Origin: a virus
Lineage: Duplodnaviria > Caudoviricetes
Direction: 5' to 3' (one strand)
Virus record (IMG/VR): IMGVR_UViG_3300018059_000029
Coordinates: 1-36,132 of that record
Length of the DNA: 36,132 nucleotides
A program made the position numbers and the translations under genes. The notes below the pieces were generated by a model. That model worked only from the letters and a program-made list of their open reading frames with translations. It was not told the origin of the DNA and made no database searches. Of the stretch, positions 1 through 34,294 are shown in pieces; position 1 is the stretch's first letter; every line of letters starts with the position of its first letter.

Positions 1-561
1 GAGTTGCCGACGGCCATTGAGCAGGTCAACAATGCGGTTGCCCCGCTGCTGCGCGGCGCGAACGCGCGCGGCTTTCTGAGCCTCGAGCTCCGCATCGGCA
101 AGTCAAAGCGGCCGTTCTTGTTGGATCCTTGCCTGCGCTGCGGTTCGCCACCGAGCGAAGCATACGCCGAGCTTTTTACGAACTGGGCAGACGTCATTTG
201 GGCTGGCGCGGCTGGGAACATGGTTGACCTCAAACCGGCGGCGAAGTACGCTGCACAGCTCATCCTCAAGAGTGACTGGGCCAAAGACAACTGGTTGGCG
301 ATTGACGTGCCGAAAGGCGTGCGCCGGTTTGTCAAACTTCACAACCATTGCCGACTCGAGGACATTGACTATGTGGTGCCGACTGGCATTGCGCAGATCG
401 GCGGCGTTATTGGCCTCGGAGACACGCTTGAAGAAGCGATCCGAGAGTGCCACGAAAACGCCGAAGCTGTCAAAGCCTATGAGCTCGACTACGCGGAAGA
501 TGCGTTCCAAGACTGCATGGAAGCGATCGAAGAAGGTACAAAGTACGGAATAGATTGGTAG
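1..561 (+). CDS. ATP-grasp ligase, PurD/GARS-like, C-terminal part (5' truncated by window edge)
   Basis: Frame open from base 1. FLSLELRI...FLLDPCLRCGSPP resembles the ATP-grasp metal-binding/EFNxRFGDPE region; GGVIGLGDTLEEA resembles the GARS C-domain end. Confidence 0.7.
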   Translation, partial: ELPTAIEQVNNAVAPLLRGANARGFLSLELRIGKSKRPFLLDPCLRCGSPPSEAYAELFTNWADVIWAGAAGNMVDLKPAAKYAAQLILKSDWAKDNWLAIDVPKGVRRFVKLHNHCRLEDIDYVVPTGIAQIGGVIGLGDTLEEAIRECHENAEAVKAYELDYAEDAFQDCMEAIEEGTKYGIDW

Positions 562-574
562 GAGGAACCAAGTT

Positions 575-1603
575 ATGGTAACAAAAGACCCACTTCCACT
601 TCCAGGTTTCGCAGCGTTGAATGCGGAAGAGAACGCCTTTTTCGCTTCGCGTGGTGAGGTAGGCGGCGAGCCCGCCACGTCGCCAGAACCAGAGCCGGAT
701 CTCACACCCGCGGAACCTGCCGAGCCGGTCGAAACAGGAGATGCCGTCGAGGCGCTTCCTGACGAAGCTGCGGGGATCGAAGGTGAGCAGCCGCCGCTGG
801 CGGCAGAAGAGCTTGAACCTGCCCGGCGGCAACCGCCGCGCAGTGCGCCGATTCCTGCGTTGCAAGCTGAGCGTGAGCGGCGTCAGCAAGCTGAGCAACG
901 CGCGCAGCAGCAAGAGGACGAGCTTCGCCAGCATCGTGAGTGGCGTGCGCGGATTGACGAACGCCTGCGGATGGTGAACGAGCAGCGCCAAGCAGCGATG
1001 CAGCAGGTGCCGCCGGACCCGAACGAAGACCCCGAAGGTTACCGCAACTACATCGATCAGCAACGCGAGACGAGGATTCAGCAGCTCGAGGCGCGGCTGG
1101 CGCAAACGGAGCAAGGTAGTCAGCAGAACGCGGTGCTGTCGAACGTCGCGTCGATGACGCAAAGCTTTGCAGCACGGACACCGGACTACTTCGAAGCCGC
1201 AGCCCAGCTCCGCGAGCGGCTTGATCAGGACTTGCAGCTTGGTGGCTACGATGACCCCAACGAGCGGCAGTTCATGATCAACCAGTGGAGCGAGCCGATC
1301 ATTCGGAAAGCGCTTTCGCGCGGCATGAATCCGGCAGAAGCGATTTACAGGATTGCGAAGTACCGCGTGGGCGGTGCGCCGCTTCCGACGCCGGCCACGC
1401 GCGCCGTCGCGCCGCCAGGAAACGTGAGCAAGGTTGCCGCGATTCGGCGGGGCCAGACGGCAACGCGGTCGCTGGGCCGCACGCCTGGCAAGGACATGAG
1501 CGAAGGTCTGACGCTCGACAGGCTGCTCAACGCTTCTGCCAACGAGTTTGCGCGACTGATGGCGGAGCAGCCAGACGCGGTCGCGGCGCTGATGGGGAAG
1601 TAG
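575..1603 (+). CDS. Probable capsid scaffolding protein
   Basis: AGGAGG RBS; acidic Pro-rich N-terminus, central coiled coil (PIPALQAERERRQ), DPEGY and TPDY motifs; directly upstream of MCP. Confidence 0.75.
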   Translation: MVTKDPLPLPGFAALNAEENAFFASRGEVGGEPATSPEPEPDLTPAEPAEPVETGDAVEALPDEAAGIEGEQPPLAAEELEPARRQPPRSAPIPALQAERERRQQAEQRAQQQEDELRQHREWRARIDERLRMVNEQRQAAMQQVPPDPNEDPEGYRNYIDQQRETRIQQLEARLAQTEQGSQQNAVLSNVASMTQSFAARTPDYFEAAAQLRERLDQDLQLGGYDDPNERQFMINQWSEPIIRKALSRGMNPAEAIYRIAKYRVGGAPLPTPATRAVAPPGNVSKVAAIRRGQTATRSLGRTPGKDMSEGLTLDRLLNASANEFARLMAEQPDAVAALMGK

Positions 1604-1846: not shown

Positions 1847-2911
1847 ATGGCAGATACAAGTTACGGAGTGAATCACGCACTTGCCGTGAAGCTCTGGTCA
1901 AAGAAGCTCTTCGTGGAGGTGCTCCAAGAGTGCATCGCCGCGAAGTTCATCGGTGAGACGCCGGGATCGCTGTTTCAGATCAAAGACGAGATGTCGAAGA
2001 CGGCAGGTGACAAGGTCACCTTCGGTCTTCGCATGCAGCTGTCCGGGCGTGGCACTACCGGCGACAACACTCAGCAGGATCAAGAGGAGCAGCTGGTCAC
2101 TTACAGCGACTCGCTGATCATCGACCAGCAACGGAACGCGGTACGTTCGGGCGGCAAGATGTCCGAACAGCGCGTGACGTTCGACGTTCGCGAGGAAGCC
2201 AAGAGCGGCCTCGTGGACTGGTGGGCAGACCGCATCGACACCGCGCTGTTCAATCAGATCGGTGGCAACACCGCACAGAGCGACACTGCATACACCGGCA
2301 TGCAGGCTACCCTCGGGCCGGACAGCGATCACCACCTCATCGCTGGCGCGCAAGCGAACGAGCAGTCCCTCAACTCCGGCCACACATTCGACCTCGCGCT
2401 CATCGACACCGCTGTCGAGCGTGCACGGACCATCTCGCCTGGACTCAGACCGGTCAAAGCGGCTGGCGACGAGTACTGGGTGATGTTCATCCACCCCTAC
2501 GTCGTCACCGACATGCGGAAGAACACCAACACCGCACAGTGGTACGACATCCAGAAGGCCGCGCTGACTGGCGGGAACGGGAACAAGAACCCGATCTTCA
2601 CCGGTGCGCTCGGCATGTACAACAACACGATCCTTCACATGGACAAGCGCGTGCCGCTCGGCATCAACGCCTCGACCGGCCTCGCCATCGCGACCGTTCG
2701 CCGTGGGATCTTCTGCGGCGCGCAGTCTGGCGTCGTGGGCTTCGGCCGCGACTACAACAACGTCACCCAGTTCAAGTGGGTCGAGGAGCTCTTCGACTAC
2801 GAGAACAAGCTCGGTGTCTGCGCTGGCCTCGTGTGGGGAGCGAAGAAGACGCAGTTCAACTCCACAGACTTCGGCGCGATCACCGTCGCGACCTACGCCG
2901 CCGCGCACTAA
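1847..2911 (+). CDS. Major capsid protein, N4-gp56 / DUF4043 family
   Basis: AVKLWSKKLF, GDKVTFGLRMQLSG, IDQQRNAVRSGG.MSEQRV, NPIFTGALG, WVEELFDYEN, G.KKT.FN..DFG motifs; strong C/G third-position codon bias. Confidence 0.95.
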   Translation: MADTSYGVNHALAVKLWSKKLFVEVLQECIAAKFIGETPGSLFQIKDEMSKTAGDKVTFGLRMQLSGRGTTGDNTQQDQEEQLVTYSDSLIIDQQRNAVRSGGKMSEQRVTFDVREEAKSGLVDWWADRIDTALFNQIGGNTAQSDTAYTGMQATLGPDSDHHLIAGAQANEQSLNSGHTFDLALIDTAVERARTISPGLRPVKAAGDEYWVMFIHPYVVTDMRKNTNTAQWYDIQKAALTGGNGNKNPIFTGALGMYNNTILHMDKRVPLGINASTGLAIATVRRGIFCGAQSGVVGFGRDYNNVTQFKWVEELFDYENKLGVCAGLVWGAKKTQFNSTDFGAITVATYAAAH

Positions 2912-5770: not shown

Positions 5771-6186
5771 GTGAGTGATGCGCGGGAAGCGATGGTCACG
5801 TTCATTGGGTTCGCGCCGGACTTGGATCCGGAGACGCCCGGGGGCTGGCTAGACTGCGATGGACTCATTGGGACGACGAAAGGTTTCCGACCAGAGCCAG
5901 GCGATGTGGCGATTTACGCACCGATTGGTGGGGTGTTTTTGCTCTATGACCGCGCGACTCCGACGGATATCTATGAGGTTCTCTTTTCAGACTATGTTAC
6001 GGTCAATGCTGCCTCTGGCCCCGCAACTGGAGGTATCTTGCTGAATGATGGATGGAGCTTCTACATCAACAATGGCATGGCTAACTACGATCAGATCCCT
6101 TTCGCGGACGTGTTGCCCTGGGACAACAGCCATCAGTTCTATGTTGACACGGCAACCTATGGCTACCCGGAGCTAATTTACATACC

Positions 6187-6190
<4 letters not shown>
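5771..6190 (+). CDS. N-terminal fragment of tail nozzle protein fused to an aromatic-rich C-terminal extension
   Basis: GFAPDLDPETPG...DC..LI.T.KGFRP matches my recollection of the N-terminus of this nozzle family; the remaining ~90 aa are unrecognised. Confidence 0.55.
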
Positions 6191-6788
<598 letters not shown>

Positions 6789-9430: not shown

Positions 9431-9891
9431 ACAACGTTGCACCGAACGCTGCGCCAGTGTTTGTGCTCCGCGATGTCGAACCTGCCAACGTGCGGCGTTG
9501 GTGGTCGATTGTCCGGCATGGGCTCGAGAAAGTTGTTGATCGAACAGATCCAGATTGGATTCCAGAGGACGTTTACGTTGCGCTTCGAAGCGGCGAGGCA
9601 AGCTTGCTTCTTGGTTTCGAAGATGACCTTTATGTAGGTTTCGCGGTCGTCTTGAAGCGCGTGCACCCGTTTGACGGAACACCAGTTCTTTTCATCTGGG
9701 CTTTGTACATCCGTACCATCGGCAAGCTTGACGCACTCATGGATCTTGTTCTTGCCAACGCGAAACAGGATGGATTCAAAAGCTTGGTGTTTCAAAGTCC
9801 AAGAAAAGCCTGGCAGCGCCGCTTGTGGGCGCGAGGGTTTAAGCTTCGTGAGCACATCTTTGAGTGCAAGCTAGGGGAGAAAAATGGCTAA
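9427..9891 (+). CDS. GNAT-fold acetyltransferase-like protein
   Basis: ATGA coupling; W.PEDVY..L, VGFAVV, LFIWALY, AK..G...L.F.SPR.AW.R pattern seen in podophage tail regions. Confidence 0.6.
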   Translation: MNNVAPNAAPVFVLRDVEPANVRRWWSIVRHGLEKVVDRTDPDWIPEDVYVALRSGEASLLLGFEDDLYVGFAVVLKRVHPFDGTPVLFIWALYIRTIGKLDALMDLVLANAKQDGFKSLVFQSPRKAWQRRLWARGFKLREHIFECKLGEKNG

Positions 9892-10816
9892 CGGTCTGCC
9901 TGCTGACCCGAATCAGATGGTCAACATCGACCCAGAGCAGTTGTTCGGGCCGGAAAATCTGACAACGACAGCGATTACAGATCTTCCAGACTGGCTCAAG
10001 CCTTATGCAACAGGACTGCTCGAGCGTGCGCAGCAGCTTTCGACGCGCAGCTATCCGTACCCGGACCAACGCGTCGCGGCGTTCAATCCAGCGCAGCGCG
10101 CAGGGCAAGCAGCAACGCTTGGTTACGCGCAGGGCAGCGGGCCGATGGTGGACATGGCCGACCGGCTCGCGATGGCCACGATGGGCGGTGCGTATCTTTA
10201 CCCGGAAACGAATCCATACCTCGCGGAGACGTACAAGCAAGGCGCGCGAGCGATGACGGATGAGTACAAGTACGCCACCGCGCCAACGACGGCAGCGAAC
10301 TTCGCGCGTGCGGGAGCGTTTGGTGGCTCTGCTATGGATCAAGAGCAAGAGCAGGAGCAGTTTGGCCTGGGTGAAAATCTTGCTTCGCTCGCGAACGCGG
10401 TCTTTGGTGGCAATTACCAGACGGAGCGACAGCGCCAGTATGGACAGCAGACGCTCACACCGGGCATCCTCGAGCAGCGGTACATTGGACCGCAACAGAT
10501 GATGAATGTTGGTGGTCAGCAACAGAGCCAAACGCAGAGCATGCTCAACACCGCATATCAGAATGCATACAATCGTGCGGACTGGCCCTACAAGTCGTTG
10601 GGTGTTATGGAAGGCGCACTCAACCCTATGCTTGGGACAGCAGGTGGTTCGACCACAACGACGTCTCCGAATCCAAACTATTCGAGTCCATTTGCGGACT
10701 TGGTCGGGCTTGGATTGATCAATGCGAATGGCAGTTATGGGTATGGTGGCGGCAGTGCGTTCCCTGGTGTCCGTCCAGGTGCAGCACCTGGCTTCGGCAC
10801 GGGCTATGGCTTCTAA
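9884..10816 (+). CDS. Probable DNA ejection/pilot protein
   Basis: TTT...LPDWLKPY, YP.QRVA.F.P.Q, NPYL, AGAFGGS motifs; Gln/Gly-rich. Confidence 0.65.
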   Translation: MANGLPADPNQMVNIDPEQLFGPENLTTTAITDLPDWLKPYATGLLERAQQLSTRSYPYPDQRVAAFNPAQRAGQAATLGYAQGSGPMVDMADRLAMATMGGAYLYPETNPYLAETYKQGARAMTDEYKYATAPTTAANFARAGAFGGSAMDQEQEQEQFGLGENLASLANAVFGGNYQTERQRQYGQQTLTPGILEQRYIGPQQMMNVGGQQQSQTQSMLNTAYQNAYNRADWPYKSLGVMEGALNPMLGTAGGSTTTTSPNPNYSSPFADLVGLGLINANGSYGYGGGSAFPGVRPGAAPGFGTGYGF

Positions 10817-26082: not shown

Positions 26083-27272
26083 GAAGTTGGCTCTTTCAGC
26101 AGTTGGTAAATAACAATTCCGTTTCTTGCAGTCTCCGCAATAAATCCTGCCGCTTTCAACGTCTGTAAGGCCAACGTCAACTCGTTGATGTCGATGCGGC
26201 GCCAAGTGGCGCGAGAGAGTTCACGCAAGGTGAGCTCGCCGCCATGCCGCGCGAAGAGTTGAAGCAGTCGCCCCTGCTCTCGTGCGACCGTAGTTGTCCC
26301 AATCTGGGCAAAAGCATCCGGCATTCCGGTTTCGACAGCTTGGAGTAAGTTCTCCGCGACTTGCACGTCGATCTCGTCGACGGCGTAGGGTGAGCCACGA
26401 CCAATTGCGACGGTCATAGCCGTGCGGAGTAAGTGGTCCGCTCGCCGGCCGTAGTAGCCATCTTGTTGGGCGACAGGTGTCTCCATGTATTTGTTGTACC
26501 ACTCGATGAACATCTTTGAGGCCGCTGGCGTCATCACCGCCTCGCCAGAGTAAGTCGCAATTTCCTTGAGCGCGGCAATGATTTCTTCTTCGAGAGCGCG
26601 TTCGAAGTCTCGCTTCTCTGGCATCGGATTGCGCCGCGTTGTGGACTCTTGATAGACGAAGATAATACGCGACATAAAGCCGCCACCGAAAGCGTTCTGA
26701 GGAATCGCTTCCGCGAGCCAGTCAGGTGTCGTTGCGCCGAGGAACGCGATGCACACGTTGCGCAGCGCAATTTCGCCCTTGCCGCGCGTTTTGAAGGACC
26801 AGGCTTCGGGTGCATCTGACAAGTCAGTCAAGATCGGCAGTAGCGCCTCGGTGTAGGCCTGCTTTGAAAGAAATGAGCTCAGCTCCGGCGCGAACACGAT
26901 CACATGACTGTCACGCGGCTGGACTTTGTGGGTCCGCGGGTCCACCGTAGTTCCTAAGCTCAGCGAGTCCAAGAACGCCTCCGGACTTGCTTTGCCTGTC
27001 AAGATTTCGACAGATTCAGCTTCCTTCAAAAGATTCATTCCGATGCGCGCAGCAGTTGACTTCCTCACGATCGCCGAACCGCCAACGAGGATAACCATCG
27101 TCTGGCCGGCGTAGAGACGGTAGAAGCCGCGGTTCATGAACACCTTGCGGCCTGCTGACGCACCGATGCAGGTGATGATAGTCCATGCGTGAAACGCTTC
27201 AGGCGCCTCATGCTTCTTCGTGTAAAGAAGGTACTTTTGGATCAGATTCAAATTCTGGCCGCTCGTTGGCAT
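26079..27272 (-). CDS. DUF3987-type P-loop helicase-like replication protein
   Basis: AAGGAGG RBS; E.P..FH.W, LVGGSAIVRKST Walker A-like, ELSSFL, GATTP.W, GGF.SR.IFV; C-terminal wHTH-like. Confidence 0.8.
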   Translation of the reverse strand: MPTSGQNLNLIQKYLLYTKKHEAPEAFHAWTIITCIGASAGRKVFMNRGFYRLYAGQTMVILVGGSAIVRKSTAARIGMNLLKEAESVEILTGKASPEAFLDSLSLGTTVDPRTHKVQPRDSHVIVFAPELSSFLSKQAYTEALLPILTDLSDAPEAWSFKTRGKGEIALRNVCIAFLGATTPDWLAEAIPQNAFGGGFMSRIIFVYQESTTRRNPMPEKRDFERALEEEIIAALKEIATYSGEAVMTPAASKMFIEWYNKYMETPVAQQDGYYGRRADHLLRTAMTVAIGRGSPYAVDEIDVQVAENLLQAVETGMPDAFAQIGTTTVAREQGRLLQLFARHGGELTLRELSRATWRRIDINELTLALQTLKAAGFIAETARNGIVIYQLLKEPTS

Positions 27273-29592
27273 CGAAATGTGCCTCCTTCATCCCATCTGC
27301 CCAAAACTTGCCAACCTTGAGTTCGACAGGAATTGTAAGTGTCCGTCCGTGAATCTGAATTGGAAGAGTCAAACAGTTGACCATGAGCTGACCAACAGCT
27401 TCCCACTTGTCCTCATCACTCTCGACAAGAACTTCATCATGCACCTGTAGCACAACACGCGCATGGGGTGGCAAGCGTGCATAGAGTTTGATGATGCCCA
27501 TGTTGGTGATTTCTGCGATTGTCGCTTGGGGGTTTTGAGCCAAAGCGTCGCGCATCATCTTGTCGTCGTACAAACCAAGGAAAACCCGGCGACGACCAAG
27601 CGGTGAGGTCAACGTCTTGGTTGTGCGAACCTGTTCACCGATGCGTTGCTGCCAGGTTTGAACAGAAGGACACGCCTGGAAATAGGACTTCTGGCAGCGC
27701 CGCGCTTCTGCTTCGGAGATGTAGAAGCCATCCTTCGCAAGCACGGAGATGACACGACGTGGACCCATGCCATAATCGAATCCATGGACGATTCGTTTGG
27801 CGATCCAGCGCTCAAGATAGTTGACTTGTGTTTGAGGCTTCTTAAAAAGATTCGCCGCGTTGAATTTGTGAATGTCTTGACCAGAAGAGAAGATCTCCAT
27901 CATGAGTGCATCTTGCGCGTCGAAAGCCACAAACATCGCCTCGGCTTGTTTGAGGTCGGCGGACAAGAGCGTTTTGCCGTCGGCGGCAGAAAAGACTCCA
28001 CGGCACGGAAGTGGAATGTTTTGCATCTGCGGCCCAAGTGGGTTGTCATCTGCGTCACGTGGCGCGCGGCTCGCAAGCCGGCCGGTTCGAGTGCCATGAA
28101 CAAGTAGGGAGAAATGATACATGTCCGCATTGTCAGTCTCGATGTCAACGAAGTTGGAGAGCAGCGTGCGTTTCTCTCGAATGTCAAGCGCTTCGTCGCC
28201 TACGGTCACGTCGCGTCCACGATTAGCCGCGGCTTGGCGGCAATACTCCCTGATGCTTTCTTCGTCCAGCTTTGGTCCGCCGGTTGGAGTCGTTTTGGTG
28301 ATTTTGATGCCGTTCTCAGTCAAAAGGCGAACCATGTCGTTCTTACCCTTGACGTTGACAGGGAAGCCCGCCTTGACGTCAAGCTCCGCTTGGCGAAACG
28401 TGACCTCTGCCTCAAGCCATTCCTTGAATCGCGCGAGACGCTCTTTGTCCACATGAATGCCGGCTCGCTTCATCTCCATGAGAGGCCAGGTCAGAGGCAT
28501 GATGTAGTTGTGAAAGTAGTCAAACATCTTGGCCTCACGCAGCTCATCATCAAGCGCGTGGCCAGACTCAAGAGTGACGCAGACGTCTTTGCAGTTGTAC
28601 GTCCAAAGCTGGCGAATGTCCATGCGGTGGGACCAGGTCTTGCCTTCCTCCTTGTAGTAGGGTTCTAGGGTGTAGAGAGAACTGATGAAGTCCAACCCAT
28701 GTGGCAACTCAGGGTAGAGGAGGTGGTGTGACAGCATTGTGTCGTGGTAGAAGTTTGTCACCTTGACAAAGTGCTCGTTCAAGATGTCGATGTCGAACAT
28801 TCCGTTTTGGAAGAACTTTTTGCATGGTGCAAAAAGCACCCGACTTATTGCGCGCCAGATCTGGAGCTCTTGTTCTTTTGTCCAGTACGGGGCGCGACCG
28901 TTGGTCATGATGGGGATGCAATAGGCAGAGGTGGGCGTGGGAGCAAAACCTATGCAGGCAACGAATGTGTTGCCAAGGCCCCAGCCAAAGGTCTCAATAT
29001 CGACAGCAAGCTCGTCCGCGAACTCGAGGTGATGGAGCCACTCGATCGCGTCAGCGTAGGTGGGTTCTATGTAGAAGGTCCGTTGGGGCAGGCGCAGCTC
29101 AGGAAACTTGCTTTGCTCGAGCACGCGCTGAAGGTCGGAGAAGATAACCGCCTTGAGTTTGAAGTCGTGGTTGTGGAGATAGTACGCAGGGTGGTACGTG
29201 GGAATGACTTTTGCACCAAAGAATGTCTCTAGCACCGAGCCGCGCCAGTGGGTGATGCCTTGGTGCTTCCAGGCAGTTAGGGTCTCCAACGCAATGCCAC
29301 CGAGGGCGACAATGACGTTGAGGTTCGGCATCCGCTCAAACTCACGAACGAGGTCAACCGCGCATTGAATCTGGCGTGCATGGTCTGGCTTGGTCAGGGT
29401 AGTCTTTTCGACGTTAGTGAGGTAGATCTCTGAGCGTGCGATGCCGAGGGGAAGAAGCAAACTGTCAATTTCGCGGCCAGTGTCGCCAACGAACGGGCGG
29501 CGTTTGAGAAGTTCCTCTCGACCAGGCCCTTCGCCAACGAAGGCGATCGTGGCCTCAAGCGAGCCTTCAGGTGGGACGAAAACGGTGCTCAC
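27208..29592 (-). CDS. polA: Family A DNA polymerase with N-terminal uracil-DNA glycosylase-like domain and 3'-5' exonuclease
   Basis: UDG: GEGPG, PFVG..G, YLTN, TYHPA; Exo: DIET, QN..FD, YN..D; Pol: TGRL, DLKQAE, R..AK.IVHG..YG, VHDE. Confidence 0.95.
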   Translation of the reverse strand: MSTVFVPPEGSLEATIAFVGEGPGREELLKRRPFVGDTGREIDSLLLPLGIARSEIYLTNVEKTTLTKPDHARQIQCAVDLVREFERMPNLNVIVALGGIALETLTAWKHQGITHWRGSVLETFFGAKVIPTYHPAYYLHNHDFKLKAVIFSDLQRVLEQSKFPELRLPQRTFYIEPTYADAIEWLHHLEFADELAVDIETFGWGLGNTFVACIGFAPTPTSAYCIPIMTNGRAPYWTKEQELQIWRAISRVLFAPCKKFFQNGMFDIDILNEHFVKVTNFYHDTMLSHHLLYPELPHGLDFISSLYTLEPYYKEEGKTWSHRMDIRQLWTYNCKDVCVTLESGHALDDELREAKMFDYFHNYIMPLTWPLMEMKRAGIHVDKERLARFKEWLEAEVTFRQAELDVKAGFPVNVKGKNDMVRLLTENGIKITKTTPTGGPKLDEESIREYCRQAAANRGRDVTVGDEALDIREKRTLLSNFVDIETDNADMYHFSLLVHGTRTGRLASRAPRDADDNPLGPQMQNIPLPCRGVFSAADGKTLLSADLKQAEAMFVAFDAQDALMMEIFSSGQDIHKFNAANLFKKPQTQVNYLERWIAKRIVHGFDYGMGPRRVISVLAKDGFYISEAEARRCQKSYFQACPSVQTWQQRIGEQVRTTKTLTSPLGRRRVFLGLYDDKMMRDALAQNPQATIAEITNMGIIKLYARLPPHARVVLQVHDEVLVESDEDKWEAVGQLMVNCLTLPIQIHGRTLTIPVELKVGKFWADGMKEAHFDANERPEFESDPKVPSLHEEA
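28816..28836. promoter_or_regulatory. Palindrome CTTTTTGCA-tgg-TGCAAAAAG (copy inside polA)
   Basis: Perfect 9-bp arms; bases 28817-28835 are the exact reverse complement of 34993-35011. Confidence 0.65.
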
Positions 29593-29972
29593 AGCGACTC
29601 GATTTCTTCTTCGTAGTCGAGCCAGTCGACTTTCAGTTGTTGAGCCAAAAGGCGCTCGATGCCAGAGGCGAATTGATGCTGCTCGTAGTACGGAGCCGCA
29701 GCGTTGTCACCAGCTTCGTCCTCTGGCTCGTGATTTCCAAGCAAGCGATCGACTTCGAACTTTTTGTCAAAAGCGTCCACATCAGCCTGAAGCACGCCAG
29801 CACGTTTGCAGAGCAGTGCCTCGATGAGCTCGTGCACCGCGATGCAGGACTCACGCCAGCGCGTAGCTAGCTTGCTCACGCGAACGTGGAGATCCTCGCC
29901 GTCGAACCACCAGTCACCTGCGGTCGGGTAGCGTTGCTCCTCGTGTGGAATGACCTTAATGATTATGTTCAT
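29589..29972 (-). CDS. Small HExxE zincin-like protein
   Basis: IPH..QRYPT.GDW, IAVHELIEA, PYYEQHQFA; 4-nt overlaps with both neighbours. Confidence 0.6.
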   Translation of the reverse strand: MNIIIKVIPHEEQRYPTAGDWWFDGEDLHVRVSKLATRWRESCIAVHELIEALLCKRAGVLQADVDAFDKKFEVDRLLGNHEPEDEAGDNAAAPYYEQHQFASGIERLLAQQLKVDWLDYEEEIESL

Positions 29973-30589
29973 TTTTTGTGCTCCAGCTGGAGACGCGCCC
30001 GCGTCTCGAGTTTGGCGAAGGTTTCTTGAAGTTTCGCGGCGTTGTTGGCGTAGATGAAAATGCCGCCGGTGAGCTCCGCGATTTGTCGCAGGAGGTCGAG
30101 TCCCTCCGCGCCGATGCCGACGGTGTCGATGCGGATGTGACGATCGCGGCAGATGCGTGCCATAGCGAGAGCGTCGGTCTTGTCACCAGCCTCGCCGTCG
30201 GAGAGCAAAATGATCCGATTTGGCTCGCTTTGAAGCGCAAGTTTTAGCGCGGTTCCGTAGTAGGTTGCTCCATGCGGCTCGAGAGAAAGTGTGGCGACCT
30301 TGACCATGCTGAAATGGTCGGTGATTTGGCAGCGCAAGCTCGGCGAAGAGTTGAAGCTGATGAGGCCAAGTTCTGTAATCGCGCGGCTGGACGAGTCGAT
30401 GATGAGGTGCAAAGCGTCCACAACCGCAGCGATACGCGAGGTGTGGTCAGCTGCCTCGAAAGTGTTTTCCATCGAGAACGACGTGTCGATGACACACATG
30501 ACGCGCTCGACGCCAACTTTCTTGACCAGCGCTTTTGACGGCTTTGCGACCTCCTGGTTTCGGACGCTAAGGCTGCTCTGAATTTTCAC
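29969..30589 (-). CDS. von Willebrand factor A (VWA) domain protein
   Basis: AAGGAGG RBS plus GTG at 30589; MIDAS DTSFS, GAT, LSDG; IDTVGIG, L..IA..TGG. Confidence 0.9.
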   Translation of the reverse strand: MKIQSSLSVRNQEVAKPSKALVKKVGVERVMCVIDTSFSMENTFEAADHTSRIAAVVDALHLIIDSSSRAITELGLISFNSSPSLRCQITDHFSMVKVATLSLEPHGATYYGTALKLALQSEPNRIILLSDGEAGDKTDALAMARICRDRHIRIDTVGIGAEGLDLLRQIAELTGGIFIYANNAAKLQETFAKLETRARLQLEHKK

Positions 30590-31740
30590 AACGCCTCCTT
30601 TATCTGTTTCCACAGAACGTTCAACTCTGCCATCTGTTTGTCGTTGCCGCCGCGGTCGCTGTGGAAGCGAAGCGCCGCGTCTCTGTACGCCTTTGTCATC
30701 GCTTCGACGCCGACGAGCTTCGCGAACTTGCCGAAGGCGTCTGTTGGCGCGGCAAGGACAACTTTTGGCCCGGCTGCTGGTCCGGTGAAGTGGCAAGTAC
30801 CAAAGATCGCCTTGATCTTGTCCCTCACCTGGTCGACAACCTGCGGCGCGATGTACCAGATCTTTGCTTCGCCGTCCCAGTTTTTGTGCTGTCTCTCGAC
30901 GAGCTTGAGCCACTCGACGAACTGGATGTTGTAAGGCGTGGCGACAGCGTAGGTACCAGTGGGTTCGTCCCACCAAATGCGGGGTGCGGTTACTCTGGGC
31001 ATGTTCTGAGCCTCCTCTCTAAGTAAGTGGTCACAAACTGCAACCGTCAAGCTGCAGCGACGAGCAAAGTGGTCGATGTCGTCGTAGTTCAGGTACTCGT
31101 AGCCGAAGCAAAGAAAAACACGACTGTCAACGCGGCCGGCCTGCGAACTAGACCAAGTATCTAGGTTGATGTTGTCAACAAACAAAGCTGCGCGAAGTCT
31201 GTGCTCCATTGGATGCGCGCGCTGCGCGTCCGCGGTGCTGTCAGTTATGATGATCGTTGGACCATTTCGTCGGCCTACAACAGCATAAGCTACGTAGTCA
31301 TCATAAGGGCCAGCTACTAAGTCTGAGATCTCCTTCGTTGCAGTTCCATTGAAGATCGCGTAAGCAAGCGCGTCAATGATGTCACCAACACCAAAGCCGA
31401 GACTCTTGGCAAAGTCTTGAAGCTTGGCAGGGTTGAATCGGATGCTTTGTGGATGAATCTTGGCCATGTCAATGCCCGTAAACTGATTTATTAACCCATC
31501 GCTCCACCACTGTGCTAGATTCTTAAGCGCAGCTGAGCGATAGTCATTGCGCACACGTTGCGCGTTGAGAAGATCTGCAGCGATTGTAGGCTGAAGTATA
31601 TCTACAAAAATCTTCTGTGACCACAACCTTACCGCATCCGCGTTGGCTGAAGTGCTAGAGCTCGGCGGCGGTGGTGACGTCCTCGCCTTCGCCTTCGCTC
31701 TCTTCTGCTTCCGTCTCCTCCGCGCTCGCTTGCTCGGCAT
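30586..31740 (-). CDS. Composite protein: basic arm, MCP-like fragment, unknown domain, HARP-like domain, J-domain-like C-terminus; probable second start at 31002
   Basis: Residues 36-89 align to this phage's MCP; PYN..FVE.LK......WD...K.W; KAYRDAALRFHSDRGG...MAELN; GAGGAGG RBS before Met247. Confidence 0.7.
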   Translation of the reverse strand: MPSKRARRRRKQKRAKAKARTSPPPPSSSTSANADAVRLWSQKIFVDILQPTIAADLLNAQRVRNDYRSAALKNLAQWWSDGLINQFTGIDMAKIHPQSIRFNPAKLQDFAKSLGFGVGDIIDALAYAIFNGTATKEISDLVAGPYDDYVAYAVVGRRNGPTIIITDSTADAQRAHPMEHRLRAALFVDNINLDTWSSSQAGRVDSRVFLCFGYEYLNYDDIDHFARRCSLTVAVCDHLLREEAQNMPRVTAPRIWWDEPTGTYAVATPYNIQFVEWLKLVERQHKNWDGEAKIWYIAPQVVDQVRDKIKAIFGTCHFTGPAAGPKVVLAAPTDAFGKFAKLVGVEAMTKAYRDAALRFHSDRGGNDKQMAELNVLWKQIKEAL

Positions 31741-33142
31741 AGACCGCCCTCAATCTCTGTTCCGCGGACTTCGCGTAATCCTCAAAAAGATCAATCCCAA
31801 TGAACTCACGCCCGTTAAGTACAGCAGCAACACCACACGAACCAGACCCAACGAATGGATCCAAAACAATGTCACCAAGTTCAGAGCCAGCCAATATGCA
31901 AACACGCGGCAACTCCTCTGGGAACGCGGCGATGTGTTGACTATCCCCTGTCGGTGCGAGGTCGATTGGCCACACGGAGCGAAGCTTTCTTTTCATTGGG
32001 TCGGCGTTTAGCCAGTCTTGGTTGTTGAATTTGTATACATCCGCCTTGCTGAACATGAAAATGTACTCGTGAATGTTCACGGGGCGGTCCGTCGTTCCCT
32101 CCGGTGTCGAGGAGGACTTGTACCAGATGACGCAAGATCGGAGCCACCAGCCACGCTTCCGCATCTCGAAAGCAAACATCCACGGAATGCCCACGAGGTC
32201 CTTCTTTTTCATCCCAGCAGACAACGTCAACTTCATCGAATCCATCTGGACAGACGCTCCGTAGGCCGTAGCGTACACGAACCCCGTTGGAGCGCCACCT
32301 TTGCTCTCGTCCGCGTACGTGTCGTCGATGTTGACCCATGCTACGCCGTCCTTTCTGAGAACGCGGAACACTTCATCAAAGATGTCCACGAGCTTCTTCA
32401 CGTAGAGTTCTGGATCGGGCTCGAGTCCAAGCTGGTCGACGTGACCATAGTCGCGCTGAGCCCAGTAAGGCGGCGAGGTGACGCAGCACTGCACGCTGTC
32501 GGCTGGGAGGGACCGAAGAACCTTAAGTGCCTCGCCATGGTGAATTTTGAAGGGCAAGTCTTCGGCCGGAAGGCGCATGGTTTGCCGCGCGAGAAGCTCT
32601 CTCTCAATGAGGCGTGAGAGTCGCTTGAGCTTCCGGAAAGCCATGACCTTGCTCTCCTCGCTGGCAAGCTCAGGAAGCACACCAATCGCGCGGGCAAGTT
32701 GAAGGTCCCGACTCACATTGCCGGGCGTCTCATGGAGCTCCTTCGCGGTGTCCACGATACCCCACTTACCTTCGCCCTTTTGCTCTCCTTGCGCTTTGCT
32801 GCCATGGAGTTCGCGTTTGACCTTGTCGATTCGAGACTTGAGCTCGATTTCCTCTTGCCAAGAAAGCTCCTTGCGCTGGAGGTTTTCTTCGAGTTCGACT
32901 TCAAGGCGCTCAAGCAGGCCGAGGTCTTTGAGAAGTCGAACTGGAACAAGCTTCCAGCCGAGCTCTTTAACTGCCTCGTAGCGACGGCCGCCGGCGACGA
33001 GGTTGCCTAGATCGTCAACAACGAGTGGATGGAACAGCCCATTGCGGGCGATGGAATTCTTCAAATCATTCAAGTCCCCGTAGTCCTTTCGTGCACGCTC
33101 GCCAACTTTGATCTGCTCGAAGGGAAGCTCAAAGAAGTTCAT
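31655..33142 (-). CDS. ParB/Srx-like domain plus HTH fused to N4C/N6A DNA methyltransferase
   Basis: R.RKD.GD...L..SI...G...P, LVAGGRR..A, ELEENLQRK.L.W.E; TSPPYW, H.A.FP..L, VLDPFVGSGS; AAGGA RBS before 33142. Confidence 0.9.
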   Translation of the reverse strand: MNFFELPFEQIKVGERARKDYGDLNDLKNSIARNGLFHPLVVDDLGNLVAGGRRYEAVKELGWKLVPVRLLKDLGLLERLEVELEENLQRKELSWQEEIELKSRIDKVKRELHGSKAQGEQKGEGKWGIVDTAKELHETPGNVSRDLQLARAIGVLPELASEESKVMAFRKLKRLSRLIERELLARQTMRLPAEDLPFKIHHGEALKVLRSLPADSVQCCVTSPPYWAQRDYGHVDQLGLEPDPELYVKKLVDIFDEVFRVLRKDGVAWVNIDDTYADESKGGAPTGFVYATAYGASVQMDSMKLTLSAGMKKKDLVGIPWMFAFEMRKRGWWLRSCVIWYKSSSTPEGTTDRPVNIHEYIFMFSKADVYKFNNQDWLNADPMKRKLRSVWPIDLAPTGDSQHIAAFPEELPRVCILAGSELGDIVLDPFVGSGSCGVAAVLNGREFIGIDLFEDYAKSAEQRLRAVYAEQASAEETEAEESEGEGEDVTTAAEL

Positions 33143-33381: not shown

Positions 33382-33837
33382 TCATGCTGCCCTCTTTGAC
33401 TTGTTTCGTAGAATTGTAAGTTGTGTTGAACTGACAAGCAAGCCAGCGCACTCTTGTGCTGTCCAAGTTAGGAACTTTTTCTTGCTCAACTTCCGCGCGA
33501 ATGCTTCAAGCTCCTTCAGCTTGCGAAAAGCGACACCTTTGGAATCGAAGCTTGCGAGCTGAGGAATGTGCAGCAGCGCAGTTGCTAGCTGAATGTCGCG
33601 GCTCACGTTGCCGGCGGTCTCGGACAAGGCCTTTGCGGTATCGACGATGCCCCACTTCTTGGAACTAAGTAGGCCCGGCTGCTCACCTTGTGTCTTGCCG
33701 CCATGCCGCTCACGCATCAGCACATCAAAAGCGGCTTTCAAGTGAACCTCAGTTGGCCAGCCAATGCTTGCCCAGTCCTTGCGCGTGGCAACGAACCAGC
33801 TAAGCTCTTTGGGCAAACCGATGACTTTGTTCTTCAT
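33382..33837 (-). CDS. Stand-alone HTH protein paralogous to the HTH region of the ParB-methyltransferase
   Basis: 34 of 48 residues identical over KWGIVDTAK...AFRKLK by manual alignment; GAGG RBS. Confidence 0.8.
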   Translation of the reverse strand: MKNKVIGLPKELSWFVATRKDWASIGWPTEVHLKAAFDVLMRERHGGKTQGEQPGLLSSKKWGIVDTAKALSETAGNVSRDIQLATALLHIPQLASFDSKGVAFRKLKELEAFARKLSKKKFLTWTAQECAGLLVSSTQLTILRNKSKRAA

Positions 33838-33847
33838 CTGCGACCTC

Positions 33848-34294
33848 TTAGTGCTTCGCCCCGATCGCCATCATCGCGCGGCAGAAGACGCGGTCGAGGT
33901 TCTCCTCGACGACGAGGTCGTCCACGCCGGCGCCGCCGAGCTTGTCCATCTGCTCCAGCGCATTTGCCGCGTGGAAGAGCAAGTGGTTAAGATGGTCGCG
34001 TCTCGAAATGAGGCGCCAGTTGCCAACGCCACGCTTGACCGCGCCACGACTGAGTACATGAGCGAGTCTATGGAACGCGTTCCAGTCGATGAGATCGTAC
34101 TTCCCTTCGACCTTGCTCTGCCGGCCGCCGAGCGGGTTGATCTCAATGCCGCGCGCAAGTGGATCGGCATGGCTGACGATCTCAGGTGCTGTAGGCGCGG
34201 CTGGCCTGTCCAGGAGGTCGTGCGCGGCTTGCAGTCCGTCTGAATGGCCCTCGTCGTAGGCGCGGTTGATGAGTTCACGTTCTTTCTTTGTCAT
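33848..34294 (-). CDS. DUF5664-like dATP/dGTP diphosphohydrolase-domain protein
   Basis: GGRQSK...YDLI...A..RLA.VL..GA.K.G..NWR...HLNH...H; AAGGAGG RBS. Confidence 0.65.
   Translation of the reverse strand: MTKKERELINRAYDEGHSDGLQAAHDLLDRPAAPTAPEIVSHADPLARGIEINPLGGRQSKVEGKYDLIDWNAFHRLAHVLSRGAVKRGVGNWRLISRRDHLNHLLFHAANALEQMDKLGGAGVDDLVVEENLDRVFCRAMMAIGAKH

Follow-up and report, generated by a model that had tools for sequence, protein, structure and literature searches.

The N-terminal part of an open reading frame in the replication arm of an uncultured podophage-like genome (ORF 30586..31740) is derived, by sequence comparison, from two helices of the same phage's major capsid protein (MCP). 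Both helices trace to the MCP lineage of this phage; their divergence shows constraint at the protein level, and they are in frame with a conserved 290-residue core. The explanation tentatively favoured, with a likelihood just under even, is that the MCP-derived piece is an early-made bait for a candidate host sensor of unassembled head proteins.

The stretch of DNA that was analysed (36,132 nucleotides, hereafter the window) covers part of the genome. Its plus strand carries the genes for the scaffold, an MCP of the N4-gp56 family (TIGR04387, PF13252), the adaptor and the nozzle. The minus strand carries those for the primase, a UDG-fused polymerase A, a VWA-domain protein, the product of ORF 30586..31740, a ParB-methyltransferase and Sak4. 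The features considered below are the following.

30586-31740, minus strand: ORF of 384 aa, consisting of a basic leader, two MCP-derived helices, a conserved middle, a HARP-like domain and a J-like hairpin.
31738-31751, minus strand: candidate start of the long form, a GAGG site and an ATG within the 3' end of the methyltransferase gene.
31655-31740, minus strand: Arg/Lys-rich leader (residues 1-29), an other-frame reading of the acidic tail of the methyltransferase.
31567-31644, minus strand: block 1, copy of the MCP N-arm helix, with ORF residues 33-58 corresponding to MCP 10-35 and a core of 36-55 corresponding to 13-32 (13/20).
31474-31560, minus strand: block 2, copied from where the P-domain spine helix starts, with ORF residues 61-89 corresponding to MCP 108-140 and four residues lost; also found in P0008/P0157.
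31003-31467, minus strand: conserved middle region from Met92, predicted as three helices followed by a small Rossmann/receiver-like alpha/beta domain, without family match.
31000-31017, minus strand: internal ribosome site GAGGAGG and Met247, the predicted start of a 138-aa short form resembling many stand-alone relatives.
30778-31002, minus strand: HARP/DUF5710-like alpha/beta domain, weakly matched (Pfam DUF5710, E = 0.03; VIA Z = 5.4-5.5 to the N-terminal domains of XPB and UvsW).
30589-30744, minus strand: J-domain-like helical hairpin, in which HSD (30655-30663) replaces HPD.
1847-2911, plus strand: cognate MCP of the N4-gp56 family; the source segments of the copy are 1883-1942 and 2168-2266.
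575-1603, plus strand: predicted scaffolding protein, from its position before the MCP gene and a C-terminal motif at about 1508-1561.
31655-33142, minus strand: upstream gene for a ParB-fused DNA methyltransferase, overlapping the first 29 codons of ORF 30586..31740.
29969-30589, minus strand: downstream VWA-domain gene with a strong ribosome site, its start overlapping the stop of ORF 30586..31740.

Two records overlap the window, one of 43 kb (G001) that is 99.8% identical to it and one of 12.7 kb (G044) that is 99.97% identical, and a 56,447-bp contig carries the ORF product together with the MCP cluster. Neither GTDB genomes nor a prophage search yielded a close prophage or a hint of the host. 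With the VWA and polymerase genes as queries for close relatives, nothing but this phage was recovered, and the VWA gene had no relative in the viral contigs searched.

Some other features of the genome were recorded. The DNA polymerase A encoded at 27208-29592 (minus strand) is fused to an N-terminal uracil-DNA glycosylase domain. A 415-aa gene between the portal and scaffold genes (window 4-561, plus strand; L162 5605-6852) has, by eye, the look of an ATP-grasp-type enzyme. A dATP/dGTP diphosphohydrolase-like gene at 33848-34294 (minus strand) contains a dGTP_diPhyd_N domain (PF18909, E = 4e-6), a family associated with modified-base phages. Together, the ATP-grasp-like and diphosphohydrolase-like genes may hint at DNA or protein modification. 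The 151-aa ORF at 33382-33837 (minus strand) shares a stretch (KWGIVDTAK...GNVSRD.QLA) with the ParB/HTH part of the methyltransferase and is apparently a partial paralogue. Most of the 60 differences between the window and G001 cluster at 5890-6273, 6756-6761 and 10042-10091, and they include a 6-nt change within the Thr-Ala repeat and, in the gene at 9884-10816, a gap of some 30 nt.

The similarity between the ORF and the MCP had been proposed in a sequence-only reading, which counted 13 identities over 20 residues (ORF 36-55, MCP 13-32), with nine of the 13 identical residues on other codons, and 10 over 21 (ORF 61-81, MCP 108-128). These counts were reproduced. The adjoining pairing of LINQFTG with LFNQIGG was recovered by BLASTP with a four-residue gap ahead of it. 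Pairwise BLASTP aligned ORF residues 33-58 with MCP 10-35 (E = 4e-6) and residues 58-89 with MCP 105-140 (E = 6e-4). Scored jointly, with one long gap allowed free between them, the two blocks reach 102, versus 51 for the best of 2000 shuffles, and the score of block 1 alone (73) was reached in none of 3000 shuffles; a chance match is thereby ruled out. When 13 structural proteins were compared by tblastn with the whole phage (the window, the left part of G001 and G044), the MCP-ORF match was the sole non-self match at E ≤ 0.05. An assembly chimera is ruled out by the locus, which is unbroken in the second assembly (L001/G001) and is also spanned, with three differences and no gap, by a 232-nt contig from another study (X6). 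A recent DNA duplication is ruled out by the saturation of synonymous sites and the absence of a blastn self-match.

The copy extends over residues 33-89, about 57 of the 354 MCP residues (16%), and counterparts of MCP 36-104 and 141-354 are absent from the ORF. A 5-residue linker had been described in place of MCP 33-107. An MCP stretch is indeed missing, but its limits may differ: the BLAST segments abut at Leu58 and the loss may correspond to about MCP 36-104. Since the segments meet there, the linker may itself be diverged MCP flanking a clean loss. An AF2 model of the MCP places helices at residues 16-34 and 112-139 and, separating them, strands and the E-loop. In the solved relative from Ralstonia phage GP4 (PDB 8h89), the N-arm comprises residues 2-47, the E-loop 48-91 and the P-domain begins at 92 (PMC9698820); in PHROG, the family is phrog_334. 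From these helix positions and domain limits, the copy joins the N-arm helix to the first part of the spine helix and omits the E-loop, as had been suggested. To speak of a miniaturised capsid protein, as the earlier reading did, is an overstatement, as only two helices are present. In the model of ORF residues 33-384, the MCP-derived part is helical with pLDDT below 50 and has no confident fold. The ORF thus resembles N4-gp56 MCPs (TIGR04387, PF13252) in the N-arm helix and spine helix start from which its blocks derive; unlike them, it is devoid of E-loop, P-sheet and A-domain and is fused to an unrelated replication-arm core. Neither the ORF nor the piece was matched by the MCP families of Pfam, PHROG or NCBIfam, and a custom HMM matched the short piece only (E = 2e-5).

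Over the 41 aligned codons, identity at positions 1, 2 and 3 amounts to 27, 28 and 12, with pN of 0.34 and pS of 0.85, the latter indicating saturated synonymous sites between copy and MCP. The 23 identical residues were reached by 5 of 100,000 neutral simulations. The protein-level conservation proposed earlier is borne out by these values. The contrast between pN and pS is inflated because the blocks were picked by amino-acid similarity, a choice that also favours the simulation result, and some of the constraint may date from a donor MCP.

The copy tracks its cognate MCP. Block 1 is identical to the phage's own MCP at 13 of 20 positions and to other related MCPs at 11 of 20 at most (66 distinct sequences from 79 loci, two rows being without block 1). 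The own MCP has 11 residues that few other family members share, and 4 of these are kept in the copy (P = 0.007). Block 2 does not discriminate, with 10/21 for the own MCP and up to 10/21 for the others. The copy looks old because the Thr at MCP position 29, which is the family state, persists in it and has been lost from the own MCP. It is no longer part of a working coat, since the family-invariant D124 and A127 and the RID stretch that follows are gone. Five of the seven changes in block 1 are conservative, some of them at near-invariant MCP positions; many changes in block 2 are non-conservative. The kept residues form hydrophobic helix faces. Strain variation is too sparse for dN/dS and within the blocks consists of one synonymous change (Gly82) and one Tyr67His substitution, in a contig of depth 3.8.

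A phmmer search against 1.84 billion representatives gave 191 matches at E ≤ 0.001. Among the best 150 of these, which were examined for coverage, P0007, P0008 and P0009 cover the core from about residue 86-98 and the others only the 138-residue C-terminal module. P0002 is a fourth full-length homologue, and the identity of the four clusters is 43-49%. In all five long proteins, the middle region and the C-terminal module share one reading frame. The large family of HARP-like plus J-domain phage proteins (window 30589-31002, minus strand, and P0010-P0156) counts 191 representatives at that threshold, many with long, variable, often Cys- or Gln-rich N-terminal extensions.

The N-terminus of P0008/P0157 (46% identical) opens with the MCP spine-helix motif. 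Residues 7-37 of P0008 matched an HMM of 66 MCPs, from which the own MCP had been left out, with E = 1.6e-6 among 160 proteins, a score reached in 0 of 1000 shuffles; the spine-helix block is therefore retained in a diverged homologue. Both spine copies keep Q108, R109, R115, A118, L122, W125 and W126. P0008 has the family-typical PFSVR, and the window copy has the Asp that it shares with the own MCP. After the spine motif, residues 59-78 of P0008 (65-84 of P0157) carry a second motif, first seen by eye and then tested, that matched an HMM of scaffold C-terminal tails with E = 1.6e-5 (0 of 1000 shuffles), and with E = 1.3e-5 when the own scaffold was removed from the HMM. This HMM was built from 37 of 55 upstream C-termini, 18 having been removed by eye as non-scaffolds, and it had no match at E ≤ 0.5 among 6796 unrelated six-frame segments. 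The scaffold-tail motif, seen inside P0008/P0157, is absent from the window ORF. The order in P0008, MCP piece then scaffold piece, reverses the gene order, so the arrangement is not a simple deletion. As P0008 holds significant spine-helix and scaffold-tail motifs, the gene family carries differing sets of coat-scaffold interface elements ahead of a conserved core.

Retention of both blocks in homologues, one of the checks named in the earlier reading, was seen in none of the four clusters in the proteins as called: block 1 is found in 0/4 and any MCP piece is absent in 3/4. The N-termini of P0158 and P0007 have no significant MCP or scaffold score. The DNA of the four homologue clusters was not found in viral contigs, JGI metagenomes or GTDB genomes. 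Of 43 loci from JGI metagenomes, two are this phage; the other 41 fall in a distant subfamily of the J family, in which neither MCP nor scaffold pieces occur. The HARP-J profile had matches in 4 of 43 records, three of them in the J part only. Used as a query among proteins of 211-672 aa, residues 31-92 retrieved only themselves (1 of 13 candidates). A second MCP piece was sought in 44 of 81 candidate records, chosen for their length and including two of this phage; it was found in 0 of the other 42 related-MCP records, which are mostly incomplete (3/42 at least 90% complete). The two MCP matches of G032 proved to be a single gene split across the record ends. In cultured phages, no second spine-helix piece was found in 63 matching records, the piece itself giving only matches with E ≥ 1. 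No head-protein family was detected in a PHROG scan of 30 homologues. The ESM Atlas gave no usable match for the middle region, and only matches under 0.9 for the N-terminus of P0157.

In the model, the core has a three-helix portion followed by a small Rossmann/receiver-like domain, then a HARP/eIF1-like domain and lastly a J-like hairpin. The HARP/eIF1-like domain has Z-scores of 5.4-6.1, a range rated by the tool as possibly only a common arrangement, and Foldseek with the whole ORF model returned nothing at E ≤ 0.001. The hairpin is helical in the model and matches Pfam DnaJ with E = 0.09, below the cut-off, and Tim14 with VIA Z = 4.8. The HPD motif of J-domain co-chaperones, kept in 144 of the best 150 of 191 family matches, is replaced by HSD at residues 360-362 of the ORF. 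Among the five long forms it is found only in P0007, with HSD also in P0002, HTD in P0008 and HGD in P0009. The suggestion that the protein is an adaptor tying chaperone activity to capsid assembly is weakened by this replacement.

The strongest predicted ribosome site of the ORF (GAGGAGG, -12.0 kcal/mol) precedes Met247, which aligns with Met in 3/4 homologues and with Val in P0007; a 138-aa short product is likely for these two reasons. The site at ATG 31740 is moderate (-6.7 kcal/mol) and that at Met92, the start of the core (31467), is weak (-2.5 kcal/mol). ATG 31740 and its ribosome site are made by the only AGG codon of the methyltransferase gene and one of its two TAT codons. In nine replication-arm genes, AGG encodes 5 of 173 Arg and TAT 11 of 65 Tyr; the use of rare codons to form this start hints, post hoc, at selection for the long form. 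By eye, a Tat-type export signal in the leader was rejected, as there is no hydrophobic stretch.

In the favoured bait reading, the long form would start at ATG 31740, coupled to the methyltransferase gene, and would be a minor product beside the short Met247 form. From its position in the replication arm, it would be made before the coat protein. The piece would display the inward-facing surface of the coat-scaffold contact, which is presumably exposed only before assembly. It would occupy the sensor and not trigger it; activation of known sensors requires the E-loop, P-sheet and A-domain, none of which is present in the piece. The reading is supported by the protein-level constraint, the origin from the own MCP lineage, the loss of residues that a working MCP keeps, and the independent retention of the spine-helix piece in P0008 together with a scaffold-tail piece. 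The differing content among relatives may reflect a changing host sensor, and an arms-race accessory fits better than a core assembly part because the content is mix-and-match and absent, as called, from three of the four clusters.

Several defence systems sense MCPs, as in the capsid-related triggers of CapRel-SJ46 (Gp57), Lit (Gol), Thoeris ThsB (Mhp) and Avs7/8/10 and in the escape mutants of CBASS. CapRel-SJ46 is modelled as touching its MCP trigger at the spine helix and P-sheet, together with A-domain loops (PMC9712102), and activation of staphylococcal Thoeris depends on E-loop and P-loop residues, where escape residues also lie (PMC12578639). Likewise, Avs7 is described as enveloping the entire HK97 fold, chiefly the A-domain (10.64898/2026.01.04.697583), and CBASS escape as mapping to capsid genes (10.1101/2022.03.30.486325; PMC13728456). 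The copy would thus resemble a sensor-bound surface through the spine helix of the modelled CapRel interface, whereas Avs7 and Thoeris use parts that are absent from it; two helices would be a poor bait for Avs7 because that sensor envelops the whole fold. The phage replies described for these systems are escape mutations or unrelated inhibitors, unlike a self-copied fragment. Several points count against the bait reading: the ribosome sites, predicted as strongest at Met247, moderate at ATG 31740 and weak at Met92; the lack of block 1 in all four clusters and of any MCP piece in three, in proteins as called; the pLDDT below 50 of the modelled piece; the non-conservative changes of block 2; and, by analogy, the short MCP peptide Gol, which can trigger rather than block a sensor, as it activates Lit (PMC9712102).

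Alternatively, the long form would bind the scaffold, and in P0008 also the coat through the scaffold tail, and bring the core into or onto procapsids as a tether or modulator of head assembly. Variants of the same explanation are packaging as an internal protein, help from a chaperone, or poisoning of the heads of co-infecting relatives. Binding to the scaffold would be expected because the patch through which the coat binds scaffold is made up of the N-arm and spine helices. In P22, the coat N-arm is the binding site for the C-terminal helix-turn-helix of the scaffold, whose binding is influenced by the first part of the spine helix as well; the same work cites comparable contacts in T7, SPP1 and phi29 (10.1101/2022.12.13.520362). 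The ORF carries an element of this interface, as judged by sequence alone, and the pieces of the ORF and P0008 are exactly the three elements of the contact. They resemble a P22-like interface in this, but have been copied into a non-structural gene. The tracking of the cognate MCP is also in keeping with a tether, as is the engagement of DnaK by the phage J-protein Rki of RB43 (PMC3486835). Against it, HPD is nearly lost from the long forms, a tether needs one half of the interface while P0008 has both, most homologues as called are without pieces, and the head genes are located elsewhere in the genome. A role in head assembly is thus considered unlikely, though it is the best placed of the alternatives.

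Still less probable is an inert remnant, whereby recombination dropped MCP DNA of a near relative between the methyltransferase gene and a gene truly starting at Met92, leaving an untranslated or tolerated appendage. P0002 is called from the Met92 equivalent and P0007 and P0009 from close to it, gene callers disagree on the start of the ORF (residue 39 or 63), and 19% of the neutral simulations remain stop-free, all of which would suit a remnant. So would the lack of a second MCP piece in the other related-MCP records. Residues 30-92 also have a low GC3 (0.48) and low codon adaptation, but the low GC3 is not limited to the piece and continues through the conserved middle region. A sigma-70-like promoter match at 31595-31623 (minus strand), overlapping block 1, would favour a remnant as well, and was rejected as not above chance (1 found versus 0.6 expected). 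A remnant is difficult to reconcile with a spine-helix piece in frame at the front of the 46%-identical P0008, joined there by a second head-protein motif, with a Met92 nearly devoid of ribosome site when rare codons build one at ATG 31740, or with the conservative changes of block 1, some at near-invariant positions. Finally, it is improbable that the exposed hydrophobic helix faces, kept in a chain that ends in a J-like hairpin, mimic a coat folding intermediate and titrate or recruit DnaK, GroEL or a protease before coat synthesis, since any amphipathic helix would serve, the cognate-MCP tracking and the scaffold-tail copy of P0008 would go unexplained, and HPD is lost.

A full-text literature search on capsid decoys, truncated MCPs and mimicry, with subscription papers mostly outside its scope, found no published description of phage genes built from pieces of the own MCP or of MCP fragments as bait. 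Among known systems, CpmB of SaPIs is a competing scaffold and Ccm of cos-SaPIs a capsid-redirecting mimic. Both are similar in that mimicry of a scaffold or coat surface acts on head assembly; they differ in being parasite genes aimed at the helper, whereas here a phage copies its own coat as short helices in a larger protein. Rki of RB43 (PMC3486835) and the HARP-like plus J-domain phage family likewise have a C-terminal J-like hairpin in a non-structural gene, but the ORF has HSD for HPD and long N-terminal additions, and neither Rki nor the HARP-J family is known to have a link to the capsid. What the locus adds is that the copy is fused to a HARP-J core and tracks its cognate MCP, and that one relative combines a coat piece with a scaffold piece.

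Beyond this locus, and a little more tentatively than for the bait reading itself, it is proposed that phages copy the conserved coat-scaffold contact motifs of their own head proteins, in combinations that change, into the front of non-structural genes, where they would be self-mimicking baits for a putative class of host sensors of the inner, pre-assembly procapsid surface. Were the piece an assembly tether instead, it would be a natural procapsid-targeting tag. Capsid proteins are a common trigger of bacterial immunity; if the bait reading is true, a phage that encodes a copy of the surface by which it triggers immunity would follow a new logic of counter-defence. The residues copied would then indicate what the candidate sensor reads, namely the N-arm helix, the spine helix and the scaffold tail. 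If self-mimicking baits are indeed made in this way, the copied pieces would be a direct map of the epitope that is sensed.
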